Below are positions 19,178-35,610 of a stretch of DNA of 64,000 bases, one piece after another (within the stretch, counting starts at the first letter, position 1; the number at the start of each line of letters is the position of its first letter). The stretch spans positions 2,544 through 66,543 of the forward strand of contig JAMDAY010000028.1 of the NCBI GenBank assembly GCA_023484515.1, given 5' to 3'. The notes beneath the pieces were generated by a model. That model was not told where the DNA came from. It did no database searches and saw nothing but the letters and a program-made list of their open reading frames with translations. This DNA comes from Patescibacteria group bacterium. GTDB taxonomy: Bacteria; Patescibacteriota; Doudnabacteria; UBA920. The position numbers and the translations under genes were made by a program.

Positions 19178-20560
19178 TTGGCCAAGATTGATCATAACGC
19201 CCATAACATGCTTATGCAATATTTAAAAAAAATCATTCCCGAAAAGATACTGAAATTTTTACGCCCCTTTTACCACGGAGCTTTGGCTTTGGCCGGGCAT
19301 TTTTATTTTGGCCGGCCGTCCCGCCGGTTAATTGTTATTGGCGTGACCGGCACAAACGGCAAGTCCACCACCGTAAATTTAATCGCGCAAATCTTGCAGG
19401 AAGCCGGTTATAAAACCGGCTATACGTCTACCGTCACCATGAATGTCAACGGGAAGGAATATCTCAATAAAATAAAAATGACCATGCCTTCGGGCTGGGT
19501 GCTGCAAAAGCATATGCGGCAAATGTTAAAGTCCGGCTGCCAATATGCGGTGCTGGAAGTGTCCAGCGAAGGCTTGGCGCAGAACCGGCATTTGGGAATA
19601 AATTTTGACGCGGCTGTCTTTACCAATTTGACTCCCGAGCACTTGGAATCCCACGGCGGGTTTGAAAATTATAAGCTGGCAAAAAGCAAGCTTTTTGCTT
19701 CGCTTATAATGAATAAGATGTCCGCAGAAAAACGCAGGATAAACCGCAAATTGGGGAAGGCAATAGTTTTTAACGCAGATGACCAATATGGGAAATATTA
19801 CGCCAGTTTTAAGTCAGACCTATGCCTGTCATACGGTGTAAAGAACCGGCAAGCGGATTTAATCGCATCTGATATCAAATATTCGCCTGATGGATTGGAA
19901 TTCATAATTCATAATTCCAAATTCATAATTCATTTAAAGGGCCAGTTTGACGTTTACAATTCCCTGGCAGCCATAGCGGCCGCACAATCACAAAACATCA
20001 GTCTGGAAATTTGCAGATCGGCCTTGGAAAAAATTCCGGTGGTGCCGGGCAGGATGGAAATAATTCAGGGCAGTCCGTTTACGGTGCTGGTGGACTACGC
20101 CTACGAGCCGGAAGAAATGCGGCAGCTTTACGAAACCGTTTCCCGCTGGCCGCATGGCCGCATTATCCAGGTCTTAGGGCCGACCGGCGGCGGGCGGGAC
20201 AAGGCAAGAATTTTTACTTTGGGGGAAATGGCGGGAAAATTCGCGTCCGAAGCAATTATTACCACGGACGACCCTTATGACGAAGACCCTAAGGCCCTAA
20301 GCCGGCCCATGGTTGAAGGCGCGGCCGCCGGGGGCAAAACGGAAGGCCAGAATTTATTTTGCGAATACGACCGCCGCCTGGCAATCCGTCTCGCGCTGCG
20401 GCGCGCGCAAGCCGGCGACCTGGTGTTAATTACCGGCAAGGGCGCGGACCAGAAAATGGCGCTGGCCGCGGGAACCTACGCGGACTGGGACGACAGGGGA
20501 GTGGCAAGGGAGGAACTTAAAGAGTTACAAGTTCATCAAGTTATCAAGTTTATCAAGTAA
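19178..20560 (+). CDS. Mur ligase family protein (MurE/MurF-like), lacking the usual N-terminal domain
   Basis: GVTGTNGKSTT P-loop. MurE-like C-terminus TTDDPYDEDP...DRRLAIRLAL...ITGKGADQK. Confidence 0.7.
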   Translation: MAKIDHNAHNMLMQYLKKIIPEKILKFLRPFYHGALALAGHFYFGRPSRRLIVIGVTGTNGKSTTVNLIAQILQEAGYKTGYTSTVTMNVNGKEYLNKIKMTMPSGWVLQKHMRQMLKSGCQYAVLEVSSEGLAQNRHLGINFDAAVFTNLTPEHLESHGGFENYKLAKSKLFASLIMNKMSAEKRRINRKLGKAIVFNADDQYGKYYASFKSDLCLSYGVKNRQADLIASDIKYSPDGLEFIIHNSKFIIHLKGQFDVYNSLAAIAAAQSQNISLEICRSALEKIPVVPGRMEIIQGSPFTVLVDYAYEPEEMRQLYETVSRWPHGRIIQVLGPTGGGRDKARIFTLGEMAGKFASEAIITTDDPYDEDPKALSRPMVEGAAAGGKTEGQNLFCEYDRRLAIRLALRRAQAGDLVLITGKGADQKMALAAGTYADWDDRGVAREELKELQVHQVIKFIK

Positions 20561-20573
20561 AAACAATCAAGTA
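20528..20573. repeat. left inverted-repeat arm of CAAGTT-unit repeats, overlapping the 3' end of the Mur ligase gene
   Basis: caagttcatcaagttatcaagtttatcaagtaaaaacaatcaagta. The reverse complement recurs at 20926-20962. Confidence 0.7.
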
Positions 20574-20574
20574 T

Positions 20575-20919
20575 ATGAAAATAGAAAGATTCGAGGATAT
20601 TATTTCTTGGCAGAAAGGTATTGACCTTGCTATTATTGTTTATGGTGTTCTAAAAAGTAATAGGGATTTAAGTTTTAAAGATCAAATCCAAAGGGCAGTG
20701 GTAAGTATTTCAAACAACATTGCGGAAGGGTATGAAAGAAAAAGCAATAAGGAACTTGCACAATTTTTATATATTGCCAAGGGTTCTGCTGGAGAAGTCA
20801 GGTCCATGGTCCATATGGCTTTGAGGTTAAAATACATTACCCCATCTCAATTTGACGATATCTATCAAAGATGTTTGGAAATTTGTCGGCTACTTTCAGG
20901 TTTTATAAAAACTTTATAG
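20575..20919 (+). CDS. four-helix-bundle protein (23S rRNA IVS-protein / Avd-like, TIGR02436-type)
   Basis: ...AVVSISNNIAEGYERKSNKELAQFLYIAKGSAGEVRS... matches the family signature. 114 aa. Confidence 0.75.
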   Translation: MKIERFEDIISWQKGIDLAIIVYGVLKSNRDLSFKDQIQRAVVSISNNIAEGYERKSNKELAQFLYIAKGSAGEVRSMVHMALRLKYITPSQFDDIYQRCLEICRLLSGFIKTL

Positions 20920-20925
20920 ATTAGA

Positions 20926-20962
20926 AACTTGATAAACTTGACGAACTTGAAACTTGATAACT
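20926..20962. repeat. right inverted-repeat arm (AACTTG units), reverse complement of 20528-20573
   Basis: aaacttgataaacttgacgaacttgaaacttgataac. Confidence 0.7.
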
Positions 20963-20965
20963 TTT

Positions 20966-21268
20966 ATGGTTTTATACATTGACACAACTGATTTTGGCAA
21001 GATAACGTTTGCCGCAACGGACGGGAAAAAATTGTGGAAAAAATCCTGCAAAATTGACCCGCATAAATCGCATGAGACTTTGGGATGTCTGGAAAAATTT
21101 TTCAAGGCAGGAAAGTTTAGCCGTAGTCAGGTCAAAAAAATTGTGGTCAACAAAGGGCCGGGCAGTTATACAGGAACCAGGATTGGGGTAACAATTGCCC
21201 AGGCTTTGGGTTTTGCCTGGGGCGTGCCGGTTAAGTTTTTGCCCAAGGACAAGATGCCTGCCTTGTAA
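20966..21268 (+). CDS. tsaB: TsaB (YeaZ)-like N-terminal fragment, truncated after ~100 aa
   Basis: MVLYIDTTDF...GPGSYTGTRIGVTIAQALGFAWGVPV matches the TsaB N-domain. The ORF stops early and repeat-rich DNA follows. Confidence 0.55.
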   Translation: MVLYIDTTDFGKITFAATDGKKLWKKSCKIDPHKSHETLGCLEKFFKAGKFSRSQVKKIVVNKGPGSYTGTRIGVTIAQALGFAWGVPVKFLPKDKMPAL

Positions 21269-21428
21269 GGGAAGACTGGTGGTAACGGCTGCTTTGGCAA
21301 AATGCCAAGGCAGCTTTTTATGACGCGGATATTAACGCTGATCTTCTACGCCGATCCATCGCGAATCTAATAACCATAAGGAATGGGAAAGACGAAAACG
21401 TACTTCCGGGATAGAGTCAGTGATGACG

Positions 21429-21526
21429 CACATCTGGGATAATCTTGTTTAAGTTTGGTTGATGATGATTATTATCAGGTAATCTAAAGACCGCTTATCC
21501 CAGATGTGCGTCATCACCCAAAACAT
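21429..21526. repeat. perfect 23-bp inverted repeat gtgatgacgcacatctgggataa / ttatcccagatgtgcgtcatcac with a 52-nt loop
   Basis: Read directly from the sequence. Non-coding. Confidence 0.8.
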
Positions 21527-21719
21527 CTGTCTCCTTTGAACACCACAACACGTGTTGTGGTGTTCCCGCCATATAGGCCAGGCGGGTCTGTAGTTGCCTG
21601 ATTCATCAGGCTCTTTGCAAAGCTGAGTGAACTAAGCGACTACAGCTTAAGGGGGCAAGGCTTAAGGTTTATTGGAGGTTTTTTAAGGTTCTTTTCCCTA
21701 TGGCATTGCGTCCCCTTGG

Positions 21720-21889
21720 TGTCATTGCGAGGCACGTCGCTCGCGAACGACGTGCCGAGGAGCCAGGGCTTTAACTGGGCCGCGAAGCAATCTATCATAA
21801 GCACAAGAAAAAGATTGCTTCGCTCGGATGCACTCGCGATGACACGCGGGATAGATTGCTTCGCTCGGATGCACTCGCTCGCAATGACA
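21720..21889. mobile_element. MITE-like element with TGTCATTGCGAG terminal inverted repeats (copy 1, 170 bp)
   Basis: TIR tgtcattgcgag at 21720 and ctcgcaatgaca at 21878. The internal blocks agggctttaactgggccgcgaagcaatct and ttgcttcgctcggatgcactcg are shared with the copy at 40425-40662. Confidence 0.65.
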
Positions 21890-21989
21890 CCGCGCTTTAT
21901 GCCAGTAATGACACCGCATTTTGCATGCCCATTGCAAGCCAGGTACCAGGCGGCACTGTGGCAAGGGGAGTTAATTACAAATTATCCTT

Positions 21990-22046
21990 TGTAGGGGCTG
22001 CCCTTTGGGCGCCCGAACTTGCGGGCAGCTAAAGCTTGCCCCTACA
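21990..22046. repeat. REP-like GTAG-headed palindrome (intergenic copy)
   Basis: tgtaggggctgccctttgggcgcccgaacttgcgggcagctaaagcttgcccctaca. Confidence 0.8.
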
Positions 22047-22170
22047 TTCTTTATGGGTTTGTTGCCTGCTTTAGGGGGCAAGGTTTCCAAGTGTTCCGGT
22101 GTAACATTAAAATATGCGGAATAAGCAGCTTAATGAATTGGGCAACTGCAAGCTTAAGGAGGCTTTGCGC

Positions 22171-22206
22171 CTGTCCTTGTAGGGACAGGTCTAGACCTGT
22201 CCTTAC
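22171..22206. repeat. partial REP-like element containing the tgtaggg head and the gacaggtctagacctgtcc palindrome
   Basis: The same inner palindrome occurs in the valS-embedded copy at 48074-48131. Confidence 0.6.
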
Positions 22207-22665
22207 GTCCTTGACATCAATGACCAGCTTGGCAATGGCTTTATCCGGGACATTCTTGGGCCTGTTCCTACTGTCCGTGATATCTGTGATCAGTGATCTG
22301 CGCCTTGAACCGAAGACCTTCAGGCCAGCTGGAACAGAGGGTTTATCCGTAATCCGTGTTTATCTGTCTGCCTTGATCCGTGTTAATCTGTTTGCAGTCT
22401 AACACCGGTTTAGCCTTGACAAATGGCTGTTTTTTTGCTAATATATATATAGAAAAAGTATCGGATAGCCAATAGGCAATAGGCAAGCCAAAACTAGCTT
22501 GCTTAAACAAGCCTAAATAGGCTAGAGTGAAACAAAAAACTACAGAATATATGCGGATTAATACGCTGATTTAACGCTGAAAAATTACGGCGCGAATCAG
22601 TGTAAATTGGATATTTATATTCTATAGTAGTTAAAGAAACAAATATCAAATAACAATTTAATCCC

Positions 22666-22908
22666 TTGTCTTCCCAAGAACAGTTGTCAATGCTGACTTC
22701 GGGCAAGCTGATTTCCATCAGCCAGGCCGCGACTTTAACTCCGTATAGTGCGGAGTATTTGAGTTTATTGGCCCGCAAGGGGAGACTGAATGCGATAAAA
22801 ATTTCCCGCGACTGGCTGACTACGGAAGAGGCGGTTAAAAATTACGTGGCCAAGCAGGTCAAGAAGCACGAAAAAATGCTCAAGATGCTGGAAGGAGGAA
22901 AAATATGA
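22666..22908 (+). CDS. excisionase-like helix-turn-helix DNA-binding protein (paralog A)
   Basis: TPYSAEYLSLLARKGRLNAIKISRDWLTTEEAVKNYVAKQVKKHEKML is nearly identical to the 31916-32146 product. HTH_17-like pattern. Its stop overlaps the start of the giant gene (ATGA). Confidence 0.6.
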   Translation: MSSQEQLSMLTSGKLISISQAATLTPYSAEYLSLLARKGRLNAIKISRDWLTTEEAVKNYVAKQVKKHEKMLKMLEGGKI

Positions 22909-25900
22909 AATCCTTCCTGCAAAAAATTGGGAATGCCTTGGGGTTAAGGCAGCAGCCCGTGGTGATTAACGCGAAGTTTATTACTCCCCAAAGCCTGAAA
23001 GAAAATTCCAAACCGGCAGCTCCGGCCTTTGCGGCTGCGCCCCGCGTCCCGGAGTCCCGGATCCCGGACAAAAACAAAACTGCGCCGCTTGCCCGCCAAA
23101 CCGCCAAGAGCGCGCCTATGGCCAAATGGATCGGAAAAATTCCCAGGCCGAAATTCGTTTTGGCCGTGCCCAAGCCGCACCGCGCTTTGGCAGTTGTGCT
23201 GGCCAAAACGTCAGTCGTTCCGTTTAAGCTGCCGCAGTTGCCCGCGCCCCTAAAAAACAAAATGCTGGCTAAATTGCCTAACCGCGTTTTGGCGGGTTTG
23301 GCTGTGCTGCTGTTTGCCTTAAGCATGTCCTTGTGGGGCGCGGCCAAAGAGATACAGATAAAGCATGCGGTTCCCGCAGGGGTCAACTCCGGAATCCTGA
23401 AATCTTTGTCGTTCAGTATCCCTAATAATTTTTCAAACAACGGGCATTCAGGCAGCTCTGTTTCAGCGGCTGGCCAGCGCATTTATCAGCGCCCATTTGG
23501 CAAATACGAAAATTTGCCGGCCAAAGAAAAAGCAGTATTTTATCCAAGCAACGACAACCTTCATTTGCTGTCGTTGTTTACCGGCGGCATTGGCAACTGG
23601 TTCGGATATTTTGGAGGATTGCGGGCAGAGTATGCGCCGTATAAATACGCAGCGCAAAATAATTCAAAAGGCGAAGCGGTTAGCCGCCATGCGGATTTAG
23701 TAAAAGGCAGGGATTCTGAATTTGTTGGCCAGGCGGGCGGGGCCCCTAAGCTGCCAGTTGGGACAATAAATTTTTCAGCCAGGCTGCAAGCGGTTAAAAT
23801 TTCCGCCCGCACGCTGGCTTTGGTTTGGACGGATTTTCTGTTCCGCCATCCGGCCATAAATTTTGCAAGCCTGCAAAGCGCGGCCCAAAATTGGAAGACG
23901 GACATTAGCCGGTCGCTTAAGACAGGCGTTGCCGCTTTTGCCGGCGTGGGCAAATCGGACGCGCAAATTTGGGGGCAAGCTTTAACCTGGCAAATAAGCG
24001 TCCGGAAAAATTTGCCGGAAGCGGCAGACAGCCAACGCGTTGCCAGCCAGGATACAATTGCACGTTATTTTGTAACATTGCAAAACTTTAACTTAAAGGC
24101 GAAGCAGTCTTTTGCTGAAATAAAGACTGCCGCGGTTTCATATTTTAAAGTTAAAGATATTAATTTCCGCAATGACGCGGCAAGCGGCCGCGTCCAAAAG
24201 GGAGAAGTCTTGGGCGCGGTAGACTATCCCGCCGGCCAGGAATCAAAATTTATAAAAATTTTCACCAATGGAGTAGGGGAGTGGTTTAAAATTTTGCCCG
24301 ATGTAAAATATTCGGAGGCTAATCAACAGCAAAAAGCCGGCAAAGGCATGGTGCTGGGCTTGTCGTCCGCCAAGGAGAACAATTCTTCTACCGTGGGCAG
24401 TATTTCCTTAAATCGGCTGGCGCAAAAGAGCTTGCAAGGACTTAATAATGCGGCAGCCTGGGAAACAAGGCAGTTGGTAAAGTTGGCAAATTTTGGAAAA
24501 GTCGCAGCCAAAGGGGTGGGAAAAGTTTGGGGGCAGGTTGCCGGCGCGGGAAAAGGCGCCTGGAACCGCGCGGTGGCAACGGCAGGACATATTTTGCAGA
24601 CCGGCAGCGAAGAAAATGTTTTGCCTTTAATTACGCATGACAAGTTTGGGCAAATGGTGGGGAACAATGGGCCGGCAGGCAATGGCGAAGCCGCGAACTT
24701 AAATTCCCAAACGCCGCAAACCGGTCCAGAGGCCGGGCATTCGGCAGCCGCCATTTCCCAACCGGCAGGCGCGCCCAACGCGGGCAGCGGCAGGCCGGCG
24801 TCTGCAGCCGTTTTAACGGCCGTTGACCCCATGTTTGTTAACCGGCTAATTGACGCGCGGCTTAACCAGTATTTGGCCGAAGGCAAATTTAAAGGCGAAA
24901 AGGGCGAAAAAGGAGACAAGGGAGACAAGGGGGACACCGGCTTAATTACTAACCCCGCAACCAACCAGTCTTCCGCGGTTGTGGGCGGCTATCCCATTGT
25001 CACTTATGTTCCTCCGGTTCCCGCCCAGGGATTTGCCGGCACTTCTTTGGCGGGCTTTGGCAATTTGTCCGCTGCAATTTTGTCAGTCTCTGACCAGACA
25101 AGCTTAAACAATCTTACTGTTACCGGCAATGTCAGTTTGGCTACCACGACCGTTACCAGTTTGACTATTGCCAGGATAAATCCGCAATTCACCGCCGGCT
25201 CTGTTGTTTTTCAAGGATCTTCCGGCCTGGCCCAGGACAACAGCAACTTCTTTTACGATGAAACTAACCATAGATTGGGAATTGGCACCAGCACTCCGTT
25301 AACCGTGTTGGAAATTGACGCTACGGACGCTTTGCGCATTCCGGTGGGCAACACCGCGCAGAGGCCGGCCGTGGCTTTAACCGGCCAAATCCGCTATAAC
25401 CTGACCACGCACCAGTTTGAGGGTTACGGCAACAATAGCGTCTGGCAGGGTTTGGGCGGGGTTATTGATGCCGACCAGGACACTTACATTACGGCGGACA
25501 CGAGCAATGCCGACGAAGATACCTTGCGCCTGTTCACTTTGGGCAACGAGCGCTTGACCGTGACCAGCGCCGGCAATGTTGGCATTGGCACGACCACGCC
25601 GGGCTATGCCTTAACCGTGGTTGGCGACGGTTACTTTACGGGCAATGTTAACATTGGCCAAAACTTGACCGTAAATGACGGGGCGGTAATCATTGGCAGC
25701 GCTACCACGACCAGCCTGACCGTAAATGCGGCCATTGCTTCCAATTTAATTCCCGATGGCAACAATACCAGAAGCTTGGGGAGCGCTTCCTATTTCTGGA
25801 GCGATTTATACGTGGGCGAGTTGCATGCCAACTTGATTTCCGACGCCTCTTCCACTTTAAGCGGCACGCTTTCCGACAGCTTTACCATTAACAGCGACAA

Positions 25901-28900
25901 TGCCAGCGCCGATGCCGAAAACGCGGATTTAATCTTCTTCCGCGGCGCCTCCGGGGCAGACCCTAACGCCTTAATTTCCTGGAATTCTACAGCCAAGCGC
26001 TTTGACTTAAACCAGCCAACTTTTATCCAGAACGCCTCGCCTTCCACCACAACCATTCCAACTTTGCTGCTTCAAGGCTCTGTCAGCCAAACCGCGGATA
26101 TTTTCCTCGCAGCCTCTTCCTCCGGCACTTCCTTGTTTAATATCACTTCCTCCGGCAACGTCGGGATAGGGACGACGGCACCAAGCCAGTTGTTGACGGT
26201 TGGTAATAACAATCAGTTTACGGTTAGTAGTTCTGGTGCAGTTGTGGCCGCTGGGCAGATTCAAGCCAATTCACTTTATACTCTCGGAAATGTGTATGGG
26301 TACGGTTTCCAAAGTGTTAATGGACCCTCGCAATCTTACATTGACATGACAAGTTATAGTAAAGCTATAGCATTTTCAGCCAGTTCCACAGAGGTAATGA
26401 GGTTAACAGGAAACGGCAATATCGGCATCGGCACCACATCGCCAGCGAACAAGCTAACGGTGGTTGATGCGGATACAACCTCCCCGGCGGGGATAGGTTC
26501 GATTAAGCTTACCCAGAATATTTCAAATCCTTACGAATTATTTATGGGTGTCAACAGCACCTATGACAACAACGAAGGAAACGGAGCCGCGTATATACAG
26601 GCGCAGCATTCGGGGGTGAATGTTTCCGGTCTGCTGCTTAACCCGAACGGAGGCCGCGTGGGCATTGGGGTGCTTCATCCTCAATCCGCGTTGGATGTCA
26701 ATGGCGGAATGAGTATTGGTTCTTACGCCGGAACCAACACGGCTCCATCGAATGGATTAATAGTAAGCGGCAATGTGGGCATCGGGACAACAAGTCCGGC
26801 GGCGAAGTTGGATGTCGTTACTTCCAGTAATAATGAAATGAGGTTTTTGGACCAGATGACCTATGGTACTGCAAGCAGCAGCAATGCCACCGGATTGTTT
26901 CTGACCACTCCAACTTATAATAACGGCGGCGGACCGTCTATTGCTTTCGGCCGCGGCACAGGAATCAATGCTACGGAAATGTGGGAGACCGGCATAGACT
27001 ATCGCGGCGGCGGCAATTTGTGGAGCGGCGGCGGAGCGGGCGCATATATTTTAGCCTATCAATGGGAACCCAACGGCCAGTCGGCGGACCGCATCGCCGT
27101 CAAACCTTACGGCCAAACTTCTATTGGTCTGCCGGATGCCGGCTTGAGCCAGTTTACTGCCCAGTTAGAAATTAGAAATCAAATAGCTAGTTTGCCAGTG
27201 GAGATTCTTTACCCCAATTTGACCCAAAGCGGCGATGTCTGGCAGGTACGCACTACGAACAATGGTTCGTCGGCCATTTCTATACCTTCCGGCGCTGTGG
27301 ACGCTTCCAACGCTAACGCTATCGTTCCAATTTTAAGATTAATGCATCCCTCCGCTGCTAGCGGCGTCGGTAATGGCGCAGCCATTGATTTTGTCGCCTC
27401 TTCCGATGGCACGACCATTGGATCAGAAATCGCCGGGACGCGCGCGGCTTCAGGGGGCTGGGGTAACTTGCAGTTTTTGACTCGCAACGGTTCGGGTCTT
27501 TTGGAACGCATGAGGATAGATAATAACGGCAACGTCGGGATTGGGACAACAGGTCCCACATCGGCATTAGAGGTTACGTCTGGCTCTGGAAATGCTTCTG
27601 TAAAATTAAGTTCAAATGCTTATGGCGGAGTAATAAGTACTGCCTCGGGCAGCAATAGCGGATACTTGTATCTAACGCCAGTCGGACGGGTGGTTAGCTT
27701 GTACGATAATACCAACGCTTATAAATTGAATATTTATAACGGCAGTAATGCTGAGTTTTCGTTTGATTCAAACGGCAATAGCTGGTTAAACGCAACCACC
27801 GGCAACGTGGGCATCGGGACGACGAGTCCTGGGGCAAAGTTGCATGTATATGGGACAGATTATACCGGTGCCATTTTTCAAAACACCAATCCTGCCAATT
27901 TTGGGTATAACCAGTTTACTAACGCTGGTGCGGCCACTTCGTATCAATACTGGTTTGGTAATACGTATAGTTCTGCAACGAATAGGTATGTTCCATCATC
28001 ATTCTTGCTCGACGCAGCAGGGACAGGCGGTTTAGGTTTGGCCGCTTCAAATGCTTCTGGGGCTATTCGCTTTTATACTGGTGGGGATAATGAAAGGGTC
28101 AGGATAGATAATAACGGCAACGTCGGGATTGGGACGACGAGCCCAAGCACTAAGTTAGAAGTTTGGGATGGCAATGATGGTTCTGGCGGAGTTATTACTG
28201 CCAAGGACGGCGGAGCTATATTAATGGCCGCTGATAGTAGCTATCCGTTGCAAGTTGGAAATAACACCGGAGGCGCCAATAATATTAGATTCCGTATCGG
28301 ATCGGATGGCACTATTGATTGGAACAACAATAACAGTGCTATTCCCACGATAACTTTGCCGACAAACAAATATCTGGCAGTATCGGGTGGAAATGGAATG
28401 ACAATAGCTGGCAACGTCGGAATTGGGACGATAAATCCGGCGGAATTGCTTGATGTGGCAGGTAACATCCGGCTGACAAACTTTAGGACCCATAATGTTA
28501 CCAGGACTTTAAGTTCTGCTATTAACGGGGTGGTAGATATTGGCACCTTCAACTTCACGTTGGGCGCGGGGGAGTTGGACGTAACCATAGTCACGCAAGG
28601 CACAGGCTACTCTATTGCTAAAACTTACAGAATCCCGGTCAGATATGATGCTACAAGCAATGCTTGGAAAATTGTATTGCCTAATTACGATTCCGGAGTA
28701 TATTCTGGAAATAATTTCCAACTGGAGGTTAAAGTCGGCACTACGAATGCCTCTTTGCGTATTCGCTCGTTGACTGCCAATTCAGCGACCGCTTATATTA
28801 CCATCCAGCAAAATGGCTTGAATAGCGACAGTTTTACCGAATCCACAGCCACTTCCACCGAGGCGGCTATTACCCAGACTTATACTTACACCCCGGTTGC

Positions 28901-30632
28901 ATTTTATAACGGTAATCTGGGAGTGCAAGTTGCCGCGCCAGATGCTGAATTGCAGGTAAATTCAATGCCTGTAAACAAGGGTTCTTATTCATTGTCAAAC
29001 TGGAACAGTACCGGCTCCAGAGCCGCTGCGTTTTTTGCCACGCCGAATAACAACGGGGGCAACAGCTTGGCCAGCGCGGAACCGGCTTTGATCTTGGGCA
29101 GGGAGGGTGTAACAGGCCAATCTTATGCCAATTTTGCGGAATTTAAACTGGCACATTACGAAGTTTCGGGCACAGACGCCCGTACCAGGATGGATATTGC
29201 TTTGACACACGGAGCGGGCGATGCAGCCGGAACTAACGTTATGAGCTTGCTAAGCAACGGCAACGTCGGGATTGGCACTACCTCTCCTTCCCAAAAGCTG
29301 GATGTCTGGGGCAATTTGAACGTCGCTACGTCAACTACGCCTGCATTGTTTGTGAACACAGCCACGGGAATGGTGGGAATTGGAACCGCGACGCCTGGGC
29401 ATCTTATTACACTTTCCGGCGGCGCTTATAGCGACGGCGCGACTTGGGAAAACGCTTCGGACGTAAACTTAAAGGAAAACTTTATTGACCTTGACCCGGC
29501 GGAAATTTTAACCAAGATAAATTCCTTAAAAGTCAGCCAGTGGAATTATAAGACGGACAAGAGCATCTCCTATATTGGCCCGACCGCCCAGGACTTTTAT
29601 TCCACATTTAACGCCTTGCGCCCCAGCAGCTCGCCGACCTCCATTTCCACGGTGGACCCGGCAGGCGTTGCATTGTTGGGAATACAGGCTTTGGACAATA
29701 AATTCAACAATTTACAATTGACGATCAGTAATTTACAGGGAAGCCTGATGAATCAGGCAACTACGACTAATCTTGCTGTTTATAACCCTTCCAACTTCTC
29801 GGGCGACAGCGTGGGCCAGGCCAAAATTTTGTCCGGCGCGACCAGCACTTTGGTTTCCTTCCAAAACGCCTACCAATACCAGCCCATAGTTACCCTAACT
29901 CCGGCCGGCCCTTACACCGCCCGCTACTGGGTGGAAAACGCCAACGCAAACGGCTTTACCGTAGTTTTGGAACACGCGGAAGAATACGACGTTACCTTTA
30001 ACTGGCATTCGTTTGCCAGCCCCGAAGCGAAATTAACGGTCAGCGACGGCACCACGCTGGACATTGTTTTGGTTTTGCCGCCGGCCGACCCGCCGCCTCC
30101 GGCCGCGCCTTTGGTGGTGCAGCCTGCGGCGGGGGACGCTACAGGCGGCTCTGCCGGTAGCAATCTTACAGACACTAATCCTCCTGCCGGAGGCGCAGAT
30201 GGTTCTTCCGGCGACAACCTTTCTCCGGACGACTCTTCTAACAACAGCCTTTCCGGCGACAACCTTCCCGCAGGGGATCTCTCAGGAAATACTTCCGGCA
30301 ATAATCCTCCCGCAGACAGCCTTTCCGGCGGTAATCTTACAGACATTAATCCTCCGGCAGGGGATGGAACAGGGGAAGGCGATCCGTCCGCTGATGGGTC
30401 TGCTTCTTCCGGCCAGCAAGGCCAGGTTTCCGGCGCAACCACAATTTCGGGCGATTCCACTTCGGCAAGCACTGAAACTGCATCCGGCGGCGACAGTTCT
30501 GCCGCCGGCAGCGATTCGTTGTCCGGCAGCGGTTCGGGCCCTACAGATACCTCTGCCGGTGTAGATGCCTCCACCGGCGCCACAGACGCATCCGCCGGCA
30601 CTACGGACGCCTCTTCCGGAAGTACACCGTAA
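22905..30632 (+). CDS. giant cell-surface tail-fibre-like protein: TM anchor, collagen-like GEKGEKGDKGDKGDTG, ~11 NVGIGTT repeats, Peptidase-S74 intramolecular chaperone domain, P/S/G/D-rich tail
   Basis: GGAGG RBS upstream. Repeated GNVGIGTTSP..KL.V units. The C-terminal SDVNLKENFIDLDPAEIL...YIGPTAQDF matches the S74 autoprocessing-domain motifs (SDxxLKxNI, GxxAQ). Confidence 0.85.
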   Translation: MKSFLQKIGNALGLRQQPVVINAKFITPQSLKENSKPAAPAFAAAPRVPESRIPDKNKTAPLARQTAKSAPMAKWIGKIPRPKFVLAVPKPHRALAVVLAKTSVVPFKLPQLPAPLKNKMLAKLPNRVLAGLAVLLFALSMSLWGAAKEIQIKHAVPAGVNSGILKSLSFSIPNNFSNNGHSGSSVSAAGQRIYQRPFGKYENLPAKEKAVFYPSNDNLHLLSLFTGGIGNWFGYFGGLRAEYAPYKYAAQNNSKGEAVSRHADLVKGRDSEFVGQAGGAPKLPVGTINFSARLQAVKISARTLALVWTDFLFRHPAINFASLQSAAQNWKTDISRSLKTGVAAFAGVGKSDAQIWGQALTWQISVRKNLPEAADSQRVASQDTIARYFVTLQNFNLKAKQSFAEIKTAAVSYFKVKDINFRNDAASGRVQKGEVLGAVDYPAGQESKFIKIFTNGVGEWFKILPDVKYSEANQQQKAGKGMVLGLSSAKENNSSTVGSISLNRLAQKSLQGLNNAAAWETRQLVKLANFGKVAAKGVGKVWGQVAGAGKGAWNRAVATAGHILQTGSEENVLPLITHDKFGQMVGNNGPAGNGEAANLNSQTPQTGPEAGHSAAAISQPAGAPNAGSGRPASAAVLTAVDPMFVNRLIDARLNQYLAEGKFKGEKGEKGDKGDKGDTGLITNPATNQSSAVVGGYPIVTYVPPVPAQGFAGTSLAGFGNLSAAILSVSDQTSLNNLTVTGNVSLATTTVTSLTIARINPQFTAGSVVFQGSSGLAQDNSNFFYDETNHRLGIGTSTPLTVLEIDATDALRIPVGNTAQRPAVALTGQIRYNLTTHQFEGYGNNSVWQGLGGVIDADQDTYITADTSNADEDTLRLFTLGNERLTVTSAGNVGIGTTTPGYALTVVGDGYFTGNVNIGQNLTVNDGAVIIGSATTTSLTVNAAIASNLIPDGNNTRSLGSASYFWSDLYVGELHANLISDASSTLSGTLSDSFTINSDNASADAENADLIFFRGASGADPNALISWNSTAKRFDLNQPTFIQNASPSTTTIPTLLLQGSVSQTADIFLAASSSGTSLFNITSSGNVGIGTTAPSQLLTVGNNNQFTVSSSGAVVAAGQIQANSLYTLGNVYGYGFQSVNGPSQSYIDMTSYSKAIAFSASSTEVMRLTGNGNIGIGTTSPANKLTVVDADTTSPAGIGSIKLTQNISNPYELFMGVNSTYDNNEGNGAAYIQAQHSGVNVSGLLLNPNGGRVGIGVLHPQSALDVNGGMSIGSYAGTNTAPSNGLIVSGNVGIGTTSPAAKLDVVTSSNNEMRFLDQMTYGTASSSNATGLFLTTPTYNNGGGPSIAFGRGTGINATEMWETGIDYRGGGNLWSGGGAGAYILAYQWEPNGQSADRIAVKPYGQTSIGLPDAGLSQFTAQLEIRNQIASLPVEILYPNLTQSGDVWQVRTTNNGSSAISIPSGAVDASNANAIVPILRLMHPSAASGVGNGAAIDFVASSDGTTIGSEIAGTRAASGGWGNLQFLTRNGSGLLERMRIDNNGNVGIGTTGPTSALEVTSGSGNASVKLSSNAYGGVISTASGSNSGYLYLTPVGRVVSLYDNTNAYKLNIYNGSNAEFSFDSNGNSWLNATTGNVGIGTTSPGAKLHVYGTDYTGAIFQNTNPANFGYNQFTNAGAATSYQYWFGNTYSSATNRYVPSSFLLDAAGTGGLGLAASNASGAIRFYTGGDNERVRIDNNGNVGIGTTSPSTKLEVWDGNDGSGGVITAKDGGAILMAADSSYPLQVGNNTGGANNIRFRIGSDGTIDWNNNNSAIPTITLPTNKYLAVSGGNGMTIAGNVGIGTINPAELLDVAGNIRLTNFRTHNVTRTLSSAINGVVDIGTFNFTLGAGELDVTIVTQGTGYSIAKTYRIPVRYDATSNAWKIVLPNYDSGVYSGNNFQLEVKVGTTNASLRIRSLTANSATAYITIQQNGLNSDSFTESTATSTEAAITQTYTYTPVAFYNGNLGVQVAAPDAELQVNSMPVNKGSYSLSNWNSTGSRAAAFFATPNNNGGNSLASAEPALILGREGVTGQSYANFAEFKLAHYEVSGTDARTRMDIALTHGAGDAAGTNVMSLLSNGNVGIGTTSPSQKLDVWGNLNVATSTTPALFVNTATGMVGIGTATPGHLITLSGGAYSDGATWENASDVNLKENFIDLDPAEILTKINSLKVSQWNYKTDKSISYIGPTAQDFYSTFNALRPSSSPTSISTVDPAGVALLGIQALDNKFNNLQLTISNLQGSLMNQATTTNLAVYNPSNFSGDSVGQAKILSGATSTLVSFQNAYQYQPIVTLTPAGPYTARYWVENANANGFTVVLEHAEEYDVTFNWHSFASPEAKLTVSDGTTLDIVLVLPPADPPPPAAPLVVQPAAGDATGGSAGSNLTDTNPPAGGADGSSGDNLSPDDSSNNSLSGDNLPAGDLSGNTSGNNPPADSLSGGNLTDINPPAGDGTGEGDPSADGSASSGQQGQVSGATTISGDSTSASTETASGGDSSAAGSDSLSGSGSGPTDTSAGVDASTGATDASAGTTDASSGSTP

Positions 30633-30715
30633 GAAATAGGACATATAAGACAAATAAGACAAATAGGACATATAAGACCTATAGGACTAATAGGACTAAT
30701 AAAACCAATAAATTT
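30633..30715. repeat. 9-bp minisatellite (ATAGGACAA / ATAAGACAA units) upstream of the 208-aa Avd-like gene
   Basis: Tandem units read directly. Translates to SYL/SYM runs on the minus strand. Confidence 0.8.
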
Positions 30716-31342
30716 ATGACAGAATTAATCGCCAAGCACGGCGGCTACAAAAACTTAAAATCTTTCCAGGCGGCGGAAATTGTTTACGACTACACCTTTG
30801 AATTCATTAACCGCTATGTCCAATTTTACAAAGACAAGGAGCAAATGGAAGGCGCGGCGCGCGGCGGCAAGCAGAACATCGGCGAAGGCAGCCAGACCGG
30901 CGGCACCTCCAGGCAAAGCGAAATTAGGCTGACAGATGTCGCCCGCGCCTCGCTGGAAGAACTGAAGCTGGATTACGAAGATTTTTTGCGCAAACAAAGC
31001 CTGCCGCAATGGGGCAAAAACGACCCGCGCGCGCTAGCCGTGCGCAAGCTGGCATACGAAAAGAATAGGACATATGGGACTTATAGGACATATATGTCAG
31101 AGCCAGAAACAGCGGCCAACTGCGCCTTGTGCTTAATTAACCAGGCAACTTATTTACTGGACAAACAACTGGCGGCGTTAGACAAGCAGTTAGGGCGGGA
31201 GGAGGACTTTAAAGAGCGTTACAGGCAAGTCCGCAAGGAACAAATATTCGGAGCAAAAGACGACTATGATGAATTTTTAAAGCAGTTTGGCAAGAAACGG
31301 CTGGAAAACGGGAGGGTGGTGCCGCTGGATGCGCCGGATTGA
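30716..31342 (+). CDS. extended four-helix-bundle (Avd-like) family protein
   Basis: QNIGEGSQ...VARASLEELKLDYEDFL parallels the NIAEGxxR...IAKGSxxEL motifs of TIGR02436. Repeat units also lie inside the ORF at 31060-31095 (RTYGTYRTYM). Confidence 0.45.
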   Translation: MTELIAKHGGYKNLKSFQAAEIVYDYTFEFINRYVQFYKDKEQMEGAARGGKQNIGEGSQTGGTSRQSEIRLTDVARASLEELKLDYEDFLRKQSLPQWGKNDPRALAVRKLAYEKNRTYGTYRTYMSEPETAANCALCLINQATYLLDKQLAALDKQLGREEDFKERYRQVRKEQIFGAKDDYDEFLKQFGKKRLENGRVVPLDAPD

Positions 31343-31560
31343 ACAAGGTGAATAGGACAAATAGGACGCATAGGACAGATAGGGCAGAGGGGCAAGGCCT
31401 ATGCGACCAGTAAGACGAATAGGACGTATAAGAACAATAAGACAAATAGGACATATAGGACATATAAGACAAATAGGACAAATAGGACAAATAGGACATA
31501 TAAGTCCTATAAGACCTATAAGTCCTATAAAGACCTATAACCTATAAAACCAAAACAGCC
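31343..31560. repeat. 9-bp minisatellite array, forward units then inverted units (self-palindromic)
   Basis: ataggacaa... followed by gtcctataagacctataagtcctat. Confidence 0.8.
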
Positions 31561-31915
31561 AAGCCTAAAACCACTCCCCTGCCTTAAATAAGAGCTAAAA
31601 AGTATCGGATAAACAATATTTAATCGTTTAAACTAACATAGTTAGATTGACCAATATATATTTGGATAAACAATATAAGATTGGATAAACTATACAAGAT
31701 AGTTTAAATGATATATAATTGTTTTATCAATATAAGATCGTCAAAACAAACTAATATAGTTTAAAAAACCTTATATTGGTTAAACAGCTAAATATCGTTT
31801 AAAAAATAATAAATCGTTTAAACAATCAAAGTAGCTCTAGACGATACTAATTGCAAATAATCCCCAATAATTTTCCACAAATAAACAAACAGCAGTCACA
31901 AAATAAAGAAACAAA

Positions 31916-32146
31916 ATGGCCTCCCCTAACTTACAATTAATTTCCGGCGCGCTTATCTCCATGCATCAGGCAGCAAAAATGACCCCGTATTCGGCGGAGT
32001 ATTTAAGCTTGCTCGCGCGCAAGGGGAGGCTAAAGGCGGTAAAAATCGGCAGGGACTGGCTGACCAATGAAGAGGCAATTAAGGAATACGTGCAAAAGCA
32101 GGTCAAAAAGCACGAAAAAATGCTGGCGGCATTGGGAAAACTATAA
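31916..32146 (+). CDS. excisionase-like helix-turn-helix DNA-binding protein (paralog B)
   Basis: TPYSAEYLSLLARKGRLKAVKIGRDWLTNEEAIKEYVQKQVKKHEKML. Paralog of 22666-22908. Confidence 0.6.
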   Translation: MASPNLQLISGALISMHQAAKMTPYSAEYLSLLARKGRLKAVKIGRDWLTNEEAIKEYVQKQVKKHEKMLAALGKL

Positions 32147-32149
32147 AAA

Positions 32150-32197
32150 ACGGATTTACACGGATACCGTCAAACGGATGCTCACGGATCACGGATA
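32150..32197. repeat. array of 5 ACGGAT hexamers (left flank of the GxxExxY cassette)
   Basis: cggatttacacggataccgtcaaacggatgctcacggatcacggata. Confidence 0.75.
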
Positions 32198-32217
32198 AAA
32201 TACATATGTAAAAATAT

Positions 32218-32654
32218 ATGGACAGTAAAGAAAAAGGGAAATTATTAGAAGAAGGATTGTGTTCAAATATTATTCGGGCGTTTTATGATGTTGCAAATAA
32301 ATATGGCAGCGGTTTAAAGGAAATTGTTTACCAAAAAGCCTTGGTTGAAATTTTGGAAAAAATGGGGCTAAAAACTGAACAGCAAAAAAGATAAGCATTT
32401 ATTCCCTTGATTCAGGGAAAACACTGGGAACATATGTGCCGGATTTAATAGTAGAAGGCAAGGTTGTTGTAGAAATTAAGGCTACCGATTATACAATTGG
32501 CCGCAATATTAATCAACAAAGGTCTTATTTAAAAGCCAGTAAGTATGAAATTGGATACCTGGTAAACTTTGGAACCCCTAGATTATTTTTTAAGAGATCA
32601 ATTTATACCAACGACCGCAAACCGTTTATTATATTATTAACCAATCATCCGTGA
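32218..32654 (+). pseudogene. GxxExxY-family protein gene split by a frameshift in an A6 run (32384-32389)
   Basis: The N-terminal ORF 32218-32394 contains GLKEIVY. The C-terminal ORF has DLIVEGKVVVEIKA...YLVNFG. Adding one A restores a single ~145-aa ORF. Confidence 0.55.
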
Positions 32655-32693
32655 TCCGTGGAAATCCGTAAGCAGTATCCGTGTTTATCCGTT
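32646..32693. repeat. array of 5 ATCCGT hexamers (right flank, inverted relative to 32150-32197)
   Basis: catccgtgatccgtggaaatccgtaagcagtatccgtgtttatccgttt. Confidence 0.75.
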
Positions 32694-33935
32694 TAAATAT
32701 GTCATTTATCGCCAGAAACAAATTCCTAAACAAATATTTGCCCTTAATTCTTTCCGCCATATTGCTTGTTACCGCGTATGGGGCTTATTTTGTCGCACAA
32801 AAATCCAAAACCGCAGAGTCTGCCTGGTTTACTTCTTCTTCCACTGCCGGTACCTGGAACTACCGGCAAAGAATTGTCATTGACCACACCAAGGTCGGGT
32901 AATCGTTAAAACAAAATTTAACCGATTTTCCGGTTTTGGTTTCCACGACCAATGTGCTGTTTAAGTCCGTAAACAACGGGGGACATGTGGGGTTAGACAG
33001 CGGCTACGACATTGTCTTTACCTCCGCGGACGGCGCCACCAAACTAGCGCACGAAATAGAAAAATACGACCCCGCAACCGGCCAGCTAATTGCCTGGGTT
33101 AAAACCAATTTATCTTCGTCTTCCGACACCGTCTTGTATCTTTACTACGGCAACTCTTCCGCCCCCGACATGCAAACCGTAGATCCGGTTAAGACTGCGG
33201 TCTGGGACAGCAACTATAAAGGCGTCTGGCATCTTGGAGAAACCGGCAGGGGCATCAGGCGATTATAAAGACAGCACAACAAATAATAGTAATAGCATCA
33301 GTACTGCTAGCCAGCCTTCCGCGGCTGCCGGCAAAATAGGTAACGCGCAAAATTTTAACAATTCCTACATCCAATTTGACGGTTCAGGCTCCTTAAATAT
33401 TTATTCCAGCCCCATAACCATTGAGGCCTGGATTAAGCCGACAACGCTTGACGCCACGCTTAGGGCGGTAGTTGATAAAGGGAGTGCTACTTATTTAATG
33501 GGGGTCTCCAGTTATCCAAGCACGGGCCATGCCAATACTTTCAGTATTAGCGGAAGCGGGGGGAGTGGTAATTATGTCGCACCTCAAAATTCTATAAGTA
33601 CGGGGGTATGGTATCATTTAGTTGTACAAGGTATAAATAATCCAAAATGGTATGCCAACGGAGCGTATTTAGGGTACTACGATACCCTTATGACCTTGAT
33701 TTCTAATACCGATGTTCTTTCCATTGGCGATAACTCCTTGCATACCCGCAAGTTTAGCGGATTAATTGAGGAAGTCCGCATTTCCAACATAGCCCGCACC
33801 CCCGAATGGATTAAAACCGAATACAACAACCAGTCCGCGCCCTCTGCTTTTTACGCGATTTCCGCGTCCAACGCTTCCTCCCGCCCCGCTGACAAGCCCC
33901 TCATCAAAACCCGCTCCGGCGTGAAGTTCCGCTAA
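32681..33935 (+). pseudogene. DUF2341 + LamG/concanavalin-like surface protein gene, disrupted by an in-frame TAA (32903) and a frameshift (~33240)
   Basis: Signal/TM present. WNYRQRIVIDHTKVG*...FPVLVSTT...DIVFTSADG...YYGN...VWHL matches DUF2341. The third ORF has GKIGNAQNFNNSYIQFDGS...EAWIKP (LamG). Confidence 0.55.
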
Positions 33936-33948
33936 TGAAAACAAAAAA

Positions 33949-33985
33949 CAATGGGCACCATTGTGCTGCACAATGGTGCCCATTG
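33949..33985. repeat. REP hairpin caatgggcaccattgtg-ctg-cacaatggtgcccattg, immediately upstream of RAYT-1
   Basis: 17-bp perfect arms. Confidence 0.8.
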
Positions 33986-33998
33986 TAACCAGCTTAAT

Positions 33999-34652
33999 AT
34001 GAATAACCGGGATTATAAATTTTTTGCGCCCAATACAATCCATCATGTATACAACCGCGGAAATGGTAAAATGGATATTTTTAGGGACGGACAGGATTTT
34101 GCAAATCTGATTAAAAGAATAGCTTTAACTTTAGGCAAGGCGAAAGAGACCGCAACGGTGCCCATTGGCTGCCAATGGGCACCGTTGCGTATTGCGCCTT
34201 TTCCAAAGAACGCTTTTACCATACTGTGTTATTGCCTTATGCCTAACCATTTTCACTTCCTTATCAGGCAGAATACTGAAATTGCGATAAGTGATTTTAT
34301 TTCAAAACTTTGCAGTAGCTATGGTAAATTTTTTAATAAAAAATACGAACACGCTGGCGGCTTGTTCCAAGATCAGTTTAAAGCTGTGCGCGTTGAAAAT
34401 GATTCCCAGTTACTGTGGGCATCCGCCTACATCCACAACAACCCCAAAACCGCCGGACTTGTCCAAAAGTTGGAAGATTATGCCTGGAGCAGTTATTTGG
34501 ATTATATCGGCAAGCGGCAGGGAACTTTGTGCGACAAGGAATTTATTTTAAAGATGATCGGCGGCGCGGAAAAGTATAAAAGATTTACGGAAGGCGGCTT
34601 TGAAAAAATCAAGGGGAGAAAAGAATTGGAACATTTGCTGCTGGATAATTAA
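33999..34652 (+). CDS. REP-associated tyrosine transposase (RAYT, IS200/Y1 HuH family), copy 1
   Basis: HHVYNRGN and YCLMPNHFHFLI (HuH) motifs. The start was chosen at MNNRDYK by alignment to copy 2. An internal REP hairpin at 34151-34189 is translated as TATVPIGCQWAPLRIAP. Confidence 0.8.
   Translation: MNNRDYKFFAPNTIHHVYNRGNGKMDIFRDGQDFANLIKRIALTLGKAKETATVPIGCQWAPLRIAPFPKNAFTILCYCLMPNHFHFLIRQNTEIAISDFISKLCSSYGKFFNKKYEHAGGLFQDQFKAVRVENDSQLLWASAYIHNNPKTAGLVQKLEDYAWSSYLDYIGKRQGTLCDKEFILKMIGGAEKYKRFTEGGFEKIKGRKELEHLLLDN
34151..34189. repeat. REP hairpin cgcaacggtgcccattgg-ctg-ccaatgggcaccgttgcg, inside the RAYT-1 ORF
   Basis: 18-bp perfect arms. Shares the ggtgcccattg core with the upstream hairpin. 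Confidence 0.8.
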
Positions 34653-34655
34653 AAT

Positions 34656-34677
34656 CCCCAGAGGCCGGCCTCTGGGG
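34656..34677. terminator. perfect palindrome ccccagaggcc/ggcctctgggg between convergent genes
   Basis: 11-bp arms with no loop spacer. Lies between the RAYT-1 stop and the ABC permease stop. Confidence 0.5.
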
Positions 34678-34687
34678 AAGATGGACG

Positions 34688-35431
34688 TTATTCTTTTAGT
34701 TTGAATACTTTAACCGTTATCAGCAGCAGCGCTGCCAGCCAAATGCCTAAGATCGCCAGGTCAAAGGCGATTTTTTTTAAGTCAAACGCGGACAAGTAGG
34801 CGGTGCGCAGGCCCTCGGCCAAATAAGTAATGGGCAAAATTTTGGCAATTTTTTGCAAGGCCTCCGGCAGCACGCTTAGCGGATAAAACACGCTGCTTAA
34901 AAAAGTCAGGGGCAGGCCCACGGCCGAGGTGATGGGCGCGGCCGAATCGTAGCTGTTGGCATAATTGGCTATGAGCAGGCCAACTAGCAGGAAAATTGCC
35001 CCACCGGCCACAATTAGCAGGAACGAGGAAATAATATTGCCGGCAAATTGGGCGCGGAACGCCAAAACTCCCAGCAAGGTTAGAATGACCGCCTGCATTA
35101 CCACTATTACCAGGCGCGCGCAAACCAGGCTGACTACCAGTTGCCATTGCTTGAGCGGCGTGGCCAGCAAACGCTTGGTAACGCCGCGCGCCTTTAAGTC
35201 CACCATCCAATAGGCCAGGCTGTATATACCTCCCTGCATAATGGTCATGGCAATAATTCCGGGCAGGACAAAACTGGAGTAAACGGTCTGGGAATTTATA
35301 ATCTTGCCGATGGGAATAATCGACAGCGCGGTATAAATAAAAGCCGGCATCAGCACCGTCCAGTAAAAACCCTCCTTTTCGCGGTAGAACATTTTAAAAT
35401 TGGCGAGGAATAGTTGGTAGAAGCTGGACAT
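34688..35431 (-). CDS. ABC-2 type transporter permease
   Basis: Six hydrophobic segments. Adjacent to the ABC ATPase. Confidence 0.7.
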   Translation of the reverse strand: MSSFYQLFLANFKMFYREKEGFYWTVLMPAFIYTALSIIPIGKIINSQTVYSSFVLPGIIAMTIMQGGIYSLAYWMVDLKARGVTKRLLATPLKQWQLVVSLVCARLVIVVMQAVILTLLGVLAFRAQFAGNIISSFLLIVAGGAIFLLVGLLIANYANSYDSAAPITSAVGLPLTFLSSVFYPLSVLPEALQKIAKILPITYLAEGLRTAYLSAFDLKKIAFDLAILGIWLAALLLITVKVFKLKE

Positions 35432-35610
35432 ACGATTTTAGGGTTTTTCTAAAATTAAAAACCTGTAAATTATTCTAATTTTTAATTGACCTAATTATTT
35501 TAAACAATATCCAATTCCTAATTCCCAATATCCAACTACTGCAGTTCATTGGGAATTGGATATTGGGTATTGGAAATTATTTAGGGTACTTAGGAATTAG
35601 GTTAATTTTG

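Follow-up and report, generated by a model that had tools for sequence, protein, structure and literature searches.

A four-helix-bundle gene enclosed by inverted AAGT-core arrays between murE and tsaB of a Patescibacteria chromosome: a probable intervening-sequence-type cassette in an mRNA operon spacer

The stretch of DNA analysed here (64 kb of contig JAMDAY010000028.1 from a Patescibacteria chromosome, hereafter the window) carries, between murE and tsaB, a small gene for a PF05635/TIGR02436-family four-helix-bundle protein, which lies in the loop of a long stem whose arms are inverted arrays of a CAAGTT-like unit (Table 1). The existence of this inverted-array hairpin gene at the murE|tsaB junction is confirmed beyond chance. 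Its arrangement, setting and base composition point to a horizontally acquired, promoter-less cassette of the type known from intervening sequences (IVSs), inserted at this junction of a chromosome of the Candidate Phyla Radiation (CPR), transcribed together with the host operon, and belonging to a very large cross-phylum family with inverted AAGT-core arrays; taken as a whole, this reading is regarded as probable, with a substantial margin of doubt. IVSs of 23S rRNA and the S23p/IVP proteins associated with them have been known since about 1990-93. In the literature found on PF05635, TIGR02436 and IVP/S23 proteins, older subscription papers excepted, there was no description of flanking AAGT arrays, of the operon-junction habit or of the gene-less mini-hairpins reported below.

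The inverted-repeat search at the locus returned complementary arms of 15-29 nt with 79-100% complementarity. In the left arm, CAAGTT occurs at 20528, 20537 and 20545 and CAAGTA at 20554 and 20567, the paired portion being 20520-20558; in the right arm, the units appear as reverse complements, with AACTTG at 20926, 20935, 20944 and 20951 and AACTTT at 20959, and an extra, innermost unit of this array is formed by the last codons of the gene itself (K-T-L-stop, AAAACTTTATAG, 20908-20919). The positions of the CAAGTT arrays given in the original prediction, which was made from the sequence alone, are correct within a few bases, the stem starting at about 20520, and the placing of the gene in the loop of a long stem is borne out by folding. 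When 20515-20975 is folded as RNA, its ends pair in a terminal stem of about 44 bp and the energy is -109.2 kcal/mol (shuffles -89 +/- 4.9, z -4.1), and the two arms joined by a short loop reach -38.3 kcal/mol (shuffles -14.6 +/- 2.9, z -8.3). The arrays are likewise rare in the surrounding DNA: all four exact matches to CAAGTTNNNCAAGT in the 64 kb fall at the cassette locus, six matches with at most one mismatch are found against 1.1 expected, and a looser array pattern is matched in the window by the two cassette arms only, against 0.12 matches per shuffle. Neither the array pattern nor a hidden Markov model from A1, run on the six-frame translation, detected a second cassette in the window.

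The left arm is also part of the upstream coding sequence. The profile match of MurE stops at residue 449-451 of 460, the homology ending near 20531, so that the left arm encodes approximately the last nine residues, VHQVIKFIK, together with the stop codon (20558-20560), as had been proposed for the Mur ligase. In the relatives of this MurE, the tails that follow the conserved WDDRxVxxEL are short, variable and free of CAAGTT units; the units are thus not a coding repeat of orthologous Mur ligases. On the other side, the ATG of tsaB (20966), which was set by the alignment of MVLYIDTT with relatives, comes directly after the last paired base of the right arm, 20965. TsaB proteins of 101-114 aa are encoded directly after murE in the closest relatives; the short tsaB of the window is therefore not truncated but native to the lineage.

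The encoded protein matches TIGR02436 (E 1e-31, 109.3 bits against a cut-off of 24) and PF05635 (E 2.3e-31, 108.6 bits against 33.8), in agreement with its earlier assignment as a 114-aa TIGR02436-type protein. Its AlphaFold2 (AF2) model, with a pLDDT of 97.3, is a four-helix bundle with helices at residues 10-25, 32-53, 58-84 and 90-113. The best Foldseek matches are 2GSC (Xanthomonas XCC0516) and 2RLD (Bacteroides BT_0352), with TM scores of 0.84-0.91 and 26-28% identity, and both of these PDB entries contain five chains; the next are Avd of the diversity-generating retroelement (DGR) of a Bordetella phage (4DWL and 8UB7), with TM scores of 0.75-0.80 and 12-15% identity. The pI of the window protein is 9.2, and Avd has been described as a pentamer of basic character, binding both the reverse transcriptase (RT) and a defined RNA element (bioRxiv 10.1101/2023.10.23.563531). 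The numerical match between a pentamer and the four to five units of each arm is suggestive only. A HEPN-like Rx4-6H motif was considered and rejected, the His after R76 not being conserved in A1. The protein had no match in a phage collection, which indicates that this clade is not obviously phage-borne.

Base composition and the comparison of relatives both identify the cassette as an insertion. The GC content drops from about 0.6 to 0.31-0.37 across the cassette, and at third codon positions (GC3) it is 0.29 in the PF05635 gene versus 0.52-0.68 in murE, tsaB, polA, rpoB and rpoC. In the three closest MurE relatives found (loci L081, L083 and L084; 70-71% identity), murE is followed by tsaB after 3, 61 and 23 bp, without a PF05635 gene; with the nearest MurE relatives only 70-72% identical, the boundaries of the insertion are not fixable to the base. 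The junction empty in three relatives and the low GC3 accord with the idea, already put forward for this locus, of an IVS-like cassette inserted between a Mur ligase and tsaB. A different PF05635 cassette, with ATAAGGG arrays, fills in L083 the junction between the ABC_tran and ABC2_membrane genes, which overlap by 8 bp in L084, and the closest homologues of the window protein (81-84% amino acid identity) lie at unrelated junctions, such as S26 peptidase|hisS, between ATCAAGTT-type arms like those of the window. As a separate observation, the empty murE-tsaB spacer of L083 (3110-3220) contains ACAAATT-like 8-nt units that fold into a weak hairpin of about 27 bp (z -2.55), perhaps the eroded remains of a cassette or of a mini-hairpin.

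More than 3000 homologues of the window protein were obtained at E < 1e-5 in a word-indexed search, and the profile search gave 24,402 clusters at 50% identity with E up to 1e-3, 8,508 of them at 1e-10. The loci sampled for the analysis of flanking DNA, 80 from species-representative genomes, 80 from metagenomes and three added by exact look-up, encode proteins of 53-84% identity and belong to many CPR lineages, Bacteroidota, Ignavibacteria, Leptospiraceae, Desulfocapsa, Omnitrophota and Neomarinimicrobiota, among others. Of 152 testable loci, 123 (81%) have a flanking inverted repeat that exceeds shuffles by at least 5 standard deviations, with medians of 36 paired nt and 89% complementarity. 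The arms are arrays, usually of four to five units that recur every 7, 8 or 9 nt and have the core AAGT(T), as compared with mostly two chained matches in control coding DNA, and the unit occurs in variants such as ATAAAGTT, ATAAAGTC, ATCAAGTT, GAAAGTT, AAGGTG and GCAAGTAC. In this layout the purine-rich array is always upstream on the sense strand, followed by the gene and then by the complementary array. In 89% of 151 loci, the flanking genes have a higher GC3 than the PF05635 gene. A like design, with GGGAAAA or TCAAGGTT units, is found in more distant members on plasmids of Nostoc and of Riemerella. Two cassettes with divergent proteins, L115 and L138, lie about 8 kb apart on one 39-kb metagenome contig, and their unit variants differ, ATCAAGT(T/C) in one versus ATAACGTT/ATAAAGTT in the other.

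Some cassettes are rearranged, complete small hairpins, each made of a forward and a reverse array, being placed beside the gene: upstream of it in L086 and L089, downstream in L002 and L062, and on both sides in L167 (1386-1960), where the two hairpins have the identical loop sequence (GACAGTTACTGCAG). These arrangements suggest recombination between arrays or nested insertions.

The setting of the related loci is that of operon-internal spacers. An upstream neighbour, defined as an open reading frame (ORF) that has 100 aa or more and whose end is no further than 400 nt away, is co-oriented with the gene in 129 of 137 loci (about 94%), a downstream neighbour in 119 of the 132 loci having one, and both in 93 of 123. 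Median gaps are 52 nt from the upstream stop to the ATG and 54 nt from the stop to the next start, these spacers are filled by the arrays, and the neighbours in about 150 related loci are unrelated housekeeping genes. At the window locus, where murE, the PF05635 gene and tsaB share the plus strand, the left arm showed no promoter-like site, and terminator-like sites were absent from the murE-tsaB interval; the first one downstream of murE comes after tsaB, at 21287-21315, which fits co-transcription of murE, cassette and tsaB. Co-orientation, filled spacers and the missing promoter-like site together form the pattern expected of a promoter-less passenger that uses read-through. The location outside rRNA claimed for the window cassette also stands, since Rfam identified in the window two tRNAs only, no rRNA and nothing at the gathering threshold over the cassette, and matches at E up to 5 were at chance level.

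Gene-less counterparts of the cassette were found as well. The roughly 705 kb of DNA around the related loci contain 25 mini-hairpins without an ORF, in which a loop of 5-35 nt separates a forward AAGT array from a reverse ACTT array and the overall length is 61-179 nt (mostly 70-110 nt); the array pattern detected none of this AAGT type in the 64-kb window. Eighteen of the 25 lie more than 300 nt from the cassette, and 14 of these 18 fill the spacer between two co-oriented ORFs, while for most of the others one neighbouring ORF was found. Five examples folded with z from -3.0 to -7.0. The genomes with mini-hairpins also carry a gene-bearing cassette, and in L036 a cassette and two mini-hairpins occupy nearby junctions of a single co-oriented gene run. 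The arrays shared between both forms suggest that the mini-hairpins would be derivatives of the cassettes.

Both the protein and its flanks are conserved. In comparisons of the window with its closest relatives, dN is 0.09-0.14 and dS is saturated (>1.8 or not computable), which gives dN/dS < 0.1 and places the protein under strong purifying selection. Identity is 34-39% at four-fold sites and 82-95% in the arms, where it is somewhat inflated by the repetitiveness of the arrays, and this difference suggests that the arms too are under constraint. Pairing scores are higher for two arms of one locus than for arms combined across loci (medians 38 vs 28, p 6e-23), so that the two arms of a cassette co-evolve in cis.

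PF05635 proteins have been reported in three settings only in the literature found, namely, rRNA insertions, Avd proteins of DGRs and genes in cas operons. In the first setting, the Coxiella IVS has a terminal stem of 28 bp that RNase III cuts at its middle, its loop holds an ORF of the PF05635 type, and tandem GACAGAT heptamers lie just before the ATG; RNase III cleavage has been demonstrated for the IVSs of Coxiella, Leptospira and Salmonella, the Coxiella ORF has been reported as decaying and probably untranslated, and the same 2016 study called the origin and function of the IVS unclear and a role of the ORF in mobility a hypothesis (PMC4990558). ORFs of the 23S_rRNA_IVP type are also present in 16S and 23S insertions of CPR bacteria (PMC11270868). 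The cassette shares with these elements the protein family, the position of the ORF in the loop of a long terminal-inverted-repeat stem, its sense orientation relative to the host transcript and the short tandem repeats just before the ATG; both are, in addition, without transposase and patchily distributed, as expected with horizontal transfer (PMC4990558, PMC11270868). The resemblance to the 23S IVS architecture, noted in the original prediction, extends to both the family and the ORF-in-stem design of the Coxiella element (PMC4990558). The cassette differs in being located in the inter-cistronic spacer of a protein-coding operon instead of an rRNA helix (helix 25 or 45), in having arms made of AAGT-core unit arrays and in the strong purifying selection on its ORF, as opposed to the decay of the Coxiella ORF, and its excision by RNase III would apply by analogy. 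The 70-110-nt mini-hairpins, in turn, resemble gene-less cassettes in the manner of the ORF-less 23S IVSs of Salmonella and other enterobacteria, or of hairpins like those of miniature inverted-repeat transposable elements, but are found in mRNA spacers and not in rRNA.

With Avd (4DWL, 8UB7), the window protein shares the four-helix-bundle fold, the small size, the basic character and pentameric relatives, whereas the sequences are only 12-15% identical, no RT was found among the 20 window ORFs scanned and Avd genes have not been described within inverted repeat arrays. The pairs formed by repetitive extragenic palindromic sequences, or their hairpin-forming doublets, and REP-associated tyrosine transposases (REP/REPIN-RAYT) are similar in that a gene is flanked by an inverted short repeat and, as far as the related loci are concerned, gene-less palindromic hairpins of the repeat occupy other intergenic sites, often within operons. 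In contrast to these, the cassette protein is a helical bundle (PF05635) and not an HUH Y1 transposase, the arms consist of tandem 7-9-nt units instead of single REPs of 20-30 nt, and the copy number appears low, the window having one cassette and no AAGT mini-hairpin. The cassette is not an rRNA IVS by location, not a DGR and not a RAYT system.

In the mechanism proposed for an IVS-type cassette, the element would have no promoter of its own and would be transcribed by read-through from the host operon. In the polycistronic RNA, the arms would pair into an A-U-rich duplex, about 44 bp long, with the ORF looped out, and the host RNase III would cut this duplex, by analogy with 23S IVSs, freeing the cassette RNA and leaving murE and tsaB separately translatable. 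Such cleavage of the stem would explain why insertions are tolerated both at the tips of rRNA helices and at inter-cistronic junctions. The protein, by homology a basic pentamer like Avd, might recognize the repeat arrays, and this speculative activity could serve its own regulation or the spread of the element. A more ambitious and decidedly tentative extension is that the PF05635 protein and the AAGT arrays constitute a previously unrecognised minimal mobile element, in which the pentameric bundle would recognize the 4-5-unit arrays as RNA or as single-strand hairpins and recruit host RNase III, a ligase or recombination function, or an RT, as Avd does, so that gene-bearing and gene-less hairpins could spread to the spacers of transcribed operons and to rRNA helices. 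If this were true, 23S rRNA IVSs and the Avd proteins of DGRs would be specialised offshoots of the family.

Several results weigh against a horizontally acquired, RNA-processed cassette. Target-site duplications were not detected in 70 loci, the longest word shared outside the arms averaging 3.87 versus 3.74 in the cross-locus control, in a comparison limited by fuzzy arm boundaries; nor did near-identical copies turn up at different sites, the closest copies being saturated at synonymous sites, and there is thus no sign of recent movement. The arms of 57 loci contain 70 mismatches compatible with G·U on the sense strand and 73 A·C mismatches, without a strand-specific RNA signature; the result speaks neither for nor against an RNA role, and arm complementarity could equally be maintained at the DNA level. 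The register of the stem is loose, unit periods of 7, 8 and 9 nt being mixed and spacers not strictly mirrored, and the conserved feature may be the motif arrays rather than a precise stem. Finally, the 38 loci whose flanks are least ORF-like gave no Rfam match at the gathering threshold and hence no rRNA, the window is likewise free of rRNA, and the other related loci are flanked by ORFs; with no rRNA-borne member in the sample, the connection with true IVSs is made through the protein family and published descriptions.

The absence of a G·U excess is one of the features that would be expected if the element acted as DNA, in a way similar to a REPIN-RAYT pair or a transposon end. The bundle protein would then bind the arrays, as duplex or as single-strand hairpins, and would mobilise, together with host enzymes, a master copy and its mini-hairpins, the RNA stem being a by-product. 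The inverted short-motif arrays at both ends resemble multi-site transposon ends, such as those of Tn7 and Mu; a gene between inverted repeats accompanied, in the related loci, by gene-less palindromes at other intergenic sites resembles the REPIN/RAYT pattern; and the co-evolution of the arms in cis, their conservation at the level of coding positions and the different unit variants of the two cassettes of one contig (L115 and L138) are all in agreement with this explanation. On the other hand, a bundle of 114 aa has no known catalytic fold or motif, its known relatives being only structural-genomics pentamers and Avd, and the lack of target-site duplications and of near-identical copies affects a DNA element as well, although elements of the IS200/IS605 type leave no duplication either. 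The upstream co-orientation of about 94% would, in addition, be unexpected for a DNA element with its own expression signals. A DNA-level element is thus a possible explanation, clearly less probable than the IVS-type cassette.

Conservation of both protein and arms could also reflect domestication, that is, a host module in which the hairpin is an operon-internal element of RNA processing or stability, regulated by the protein to the benefit of the host. The constant position at gene junctions inside operons and the mini-hairpins that fill successive junctions of a single operon in L036 would be explained in this way. Such a role is unlikely, given the patchy presence at orthologous junctions of close relatives, the unrelated insertion sites of the closest copies, the foreign base composition in 89% of loci and the upstream gene being forced to read into the array. 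An orphan Avd of a DGR with its RT elsewhere in the genome appears very improbable. The fold does match 4DWL and 8UB7, and PF05635 is the Pfam family that commonly matches DGR Avd proteins (PMC10053308), but identity to Avd is low and the non-DGR structures 2GSC and 2RLD match better, phage matches are absent, and the neighbours in the related loci are unrelated housekeeping genes. As already stated for this window, an RT is missing: no RVT domain occurs among the 20 window ORFs of 233-1299 aa scanned against Pfam, which comprise housekeeping genes, a large serine recombinase and a Y1 transposase. Repeat scans of 20400-21100 and 21250-22950 gave no pair of template and variable repeats (TR/VR), no dedicated TR/VR search having been made. 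A chance repeat or a MurE coding repeat, the latter suggested by the translation of the left array as the MurE tail, is rejected as practically inconceivable on the basis of the pattern statistics, the z of -8.3, the unit-free tails of orthologous MurE and the matching arrays that flank homologous genes in more than 120 unrelated loci.

For the IVS-type cassette, several consequences follow. The family is annotated only as 'four helix bundle protein' despite its size, and members of the sampled clade typically reside in spacers of co-transcribed genes and not in rRNA. The protein and its conserved cis element form a defined pair, for which binding, processing and mobility are testable in Riemerella, Bacteroides, Odoribacter, Labilibacter and Nostoc. 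PF05635-type genes have been reported without explanation inside cas operons, for example, between cmr3 and cmr2 (PMC3936711; see also PMC10910872), and promiscuous insertion into operon junctions would yield such genes; the 'associations' of 23S_rRNA_IVP with cas operons may simply reflect operon-junction insertion. Genome annotation should also allow for C-terminal extensions added to upstream proteins by the arrays.

Table 1. Coordinates of the cassette, its host genes and the terminator-like site in the window, with examples of mini-hairpins in related loci (locus handles with positions).
Feature	Position	Strand	Evidence
murE (UDP-MurNAc-tripeptide synthetase), host gene	19178..20560	+	Pfam Mur_ligase_M, Mur_ligase_C; TIGR01085
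Left arm, purine-first array, five units	20520..20573	+	sequence, inverted repeats, folds, pattern statistics
Four-helix-bundle protein gene, 114 aa, PF05635 / TIGR02436	20575..20919	+	profile matches, AF2, Foldseek
Right arm, complementary array	20925..20965	+	sequence, inverted repeats, folds
tsaB, host gene, short form of ~100 aa	20966..21268	+	TIGR03725, PF00814
Terminator-like hairpin 3' of tsaB	21287..21315	+	terminator-like site scan
Mini-hairpins, examples	L036 2881-2963, 3661-3755; L034 503-585, 1782-1854; L104 1377-1472; L052 2108-2210; L015 1747-1834		

Other features of the window were recorded alongside the cassette. An ORF-less hairpin of another type lies at 35478-35575 on the minus strand, in the 180-nt spacer between the ABC_tran (35611-36606) and ABC2_membrane (34688-35431) genes; it consists of CCAAT/ATTGG arrays with units of 7-8 nt around the centre ACTGCAGT, folds at -35.6 kcal/mol (z -4.5) and is pyrimidine-first, which sets it apart from the AAGT arrays. 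This is the same junction at which the genes overlap by 8 bp in L084 and which is occupied by a PF05635 cassette in L083.

The distance from tsaB to the ABC2_membrane/ABC_tran pair is about 40-250 nt in L081, L083 and L084 versus about 13.4 kb in the window, and the stretch from about 21300 to 34690, with a palindrome-rich non-coding part, a 2575-aa ORF, a LamG-domain protein and a Y1 transposase, looks like a large insertion relative to these relatives. The non-coding part (21300-22900, about 1.6 kb) has no long ORF and many small palindromes and repeats, among them a hairpin whose arms measure 47 nt (21420-21517), perfect palindromes of 14 bp (21538-21565 and 22179-22206) and a 26-mer present at both 21812 and 21853. 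The 2575-aa ORF (22905-30632, plus strand) has Gly/Ser/Thr/Asn-rich repeats and probably encodes a surface protein. The Y1 gene (33951-34652, plus strand) is annotated as a 233-aa ORF with an IS200-like Y1 transposase domain (PF01797, E 5e-11), and perfect palindromes with 18-bp stems that contain GGTGCCCATTG are located over the annotated start (33951-33986) and inside the gene (34151-34189); the palindromes differ from the cassette arrays, and with the gene they resemble a RAYT/REP pair, the real start being probably the ATG at 33999. Towards the 3' end of the window, a large serine recombinase with Resolvase, Recombinase and Zn_ribbon_recom domains (57681-59015, minus strand) may mark an integrated element.

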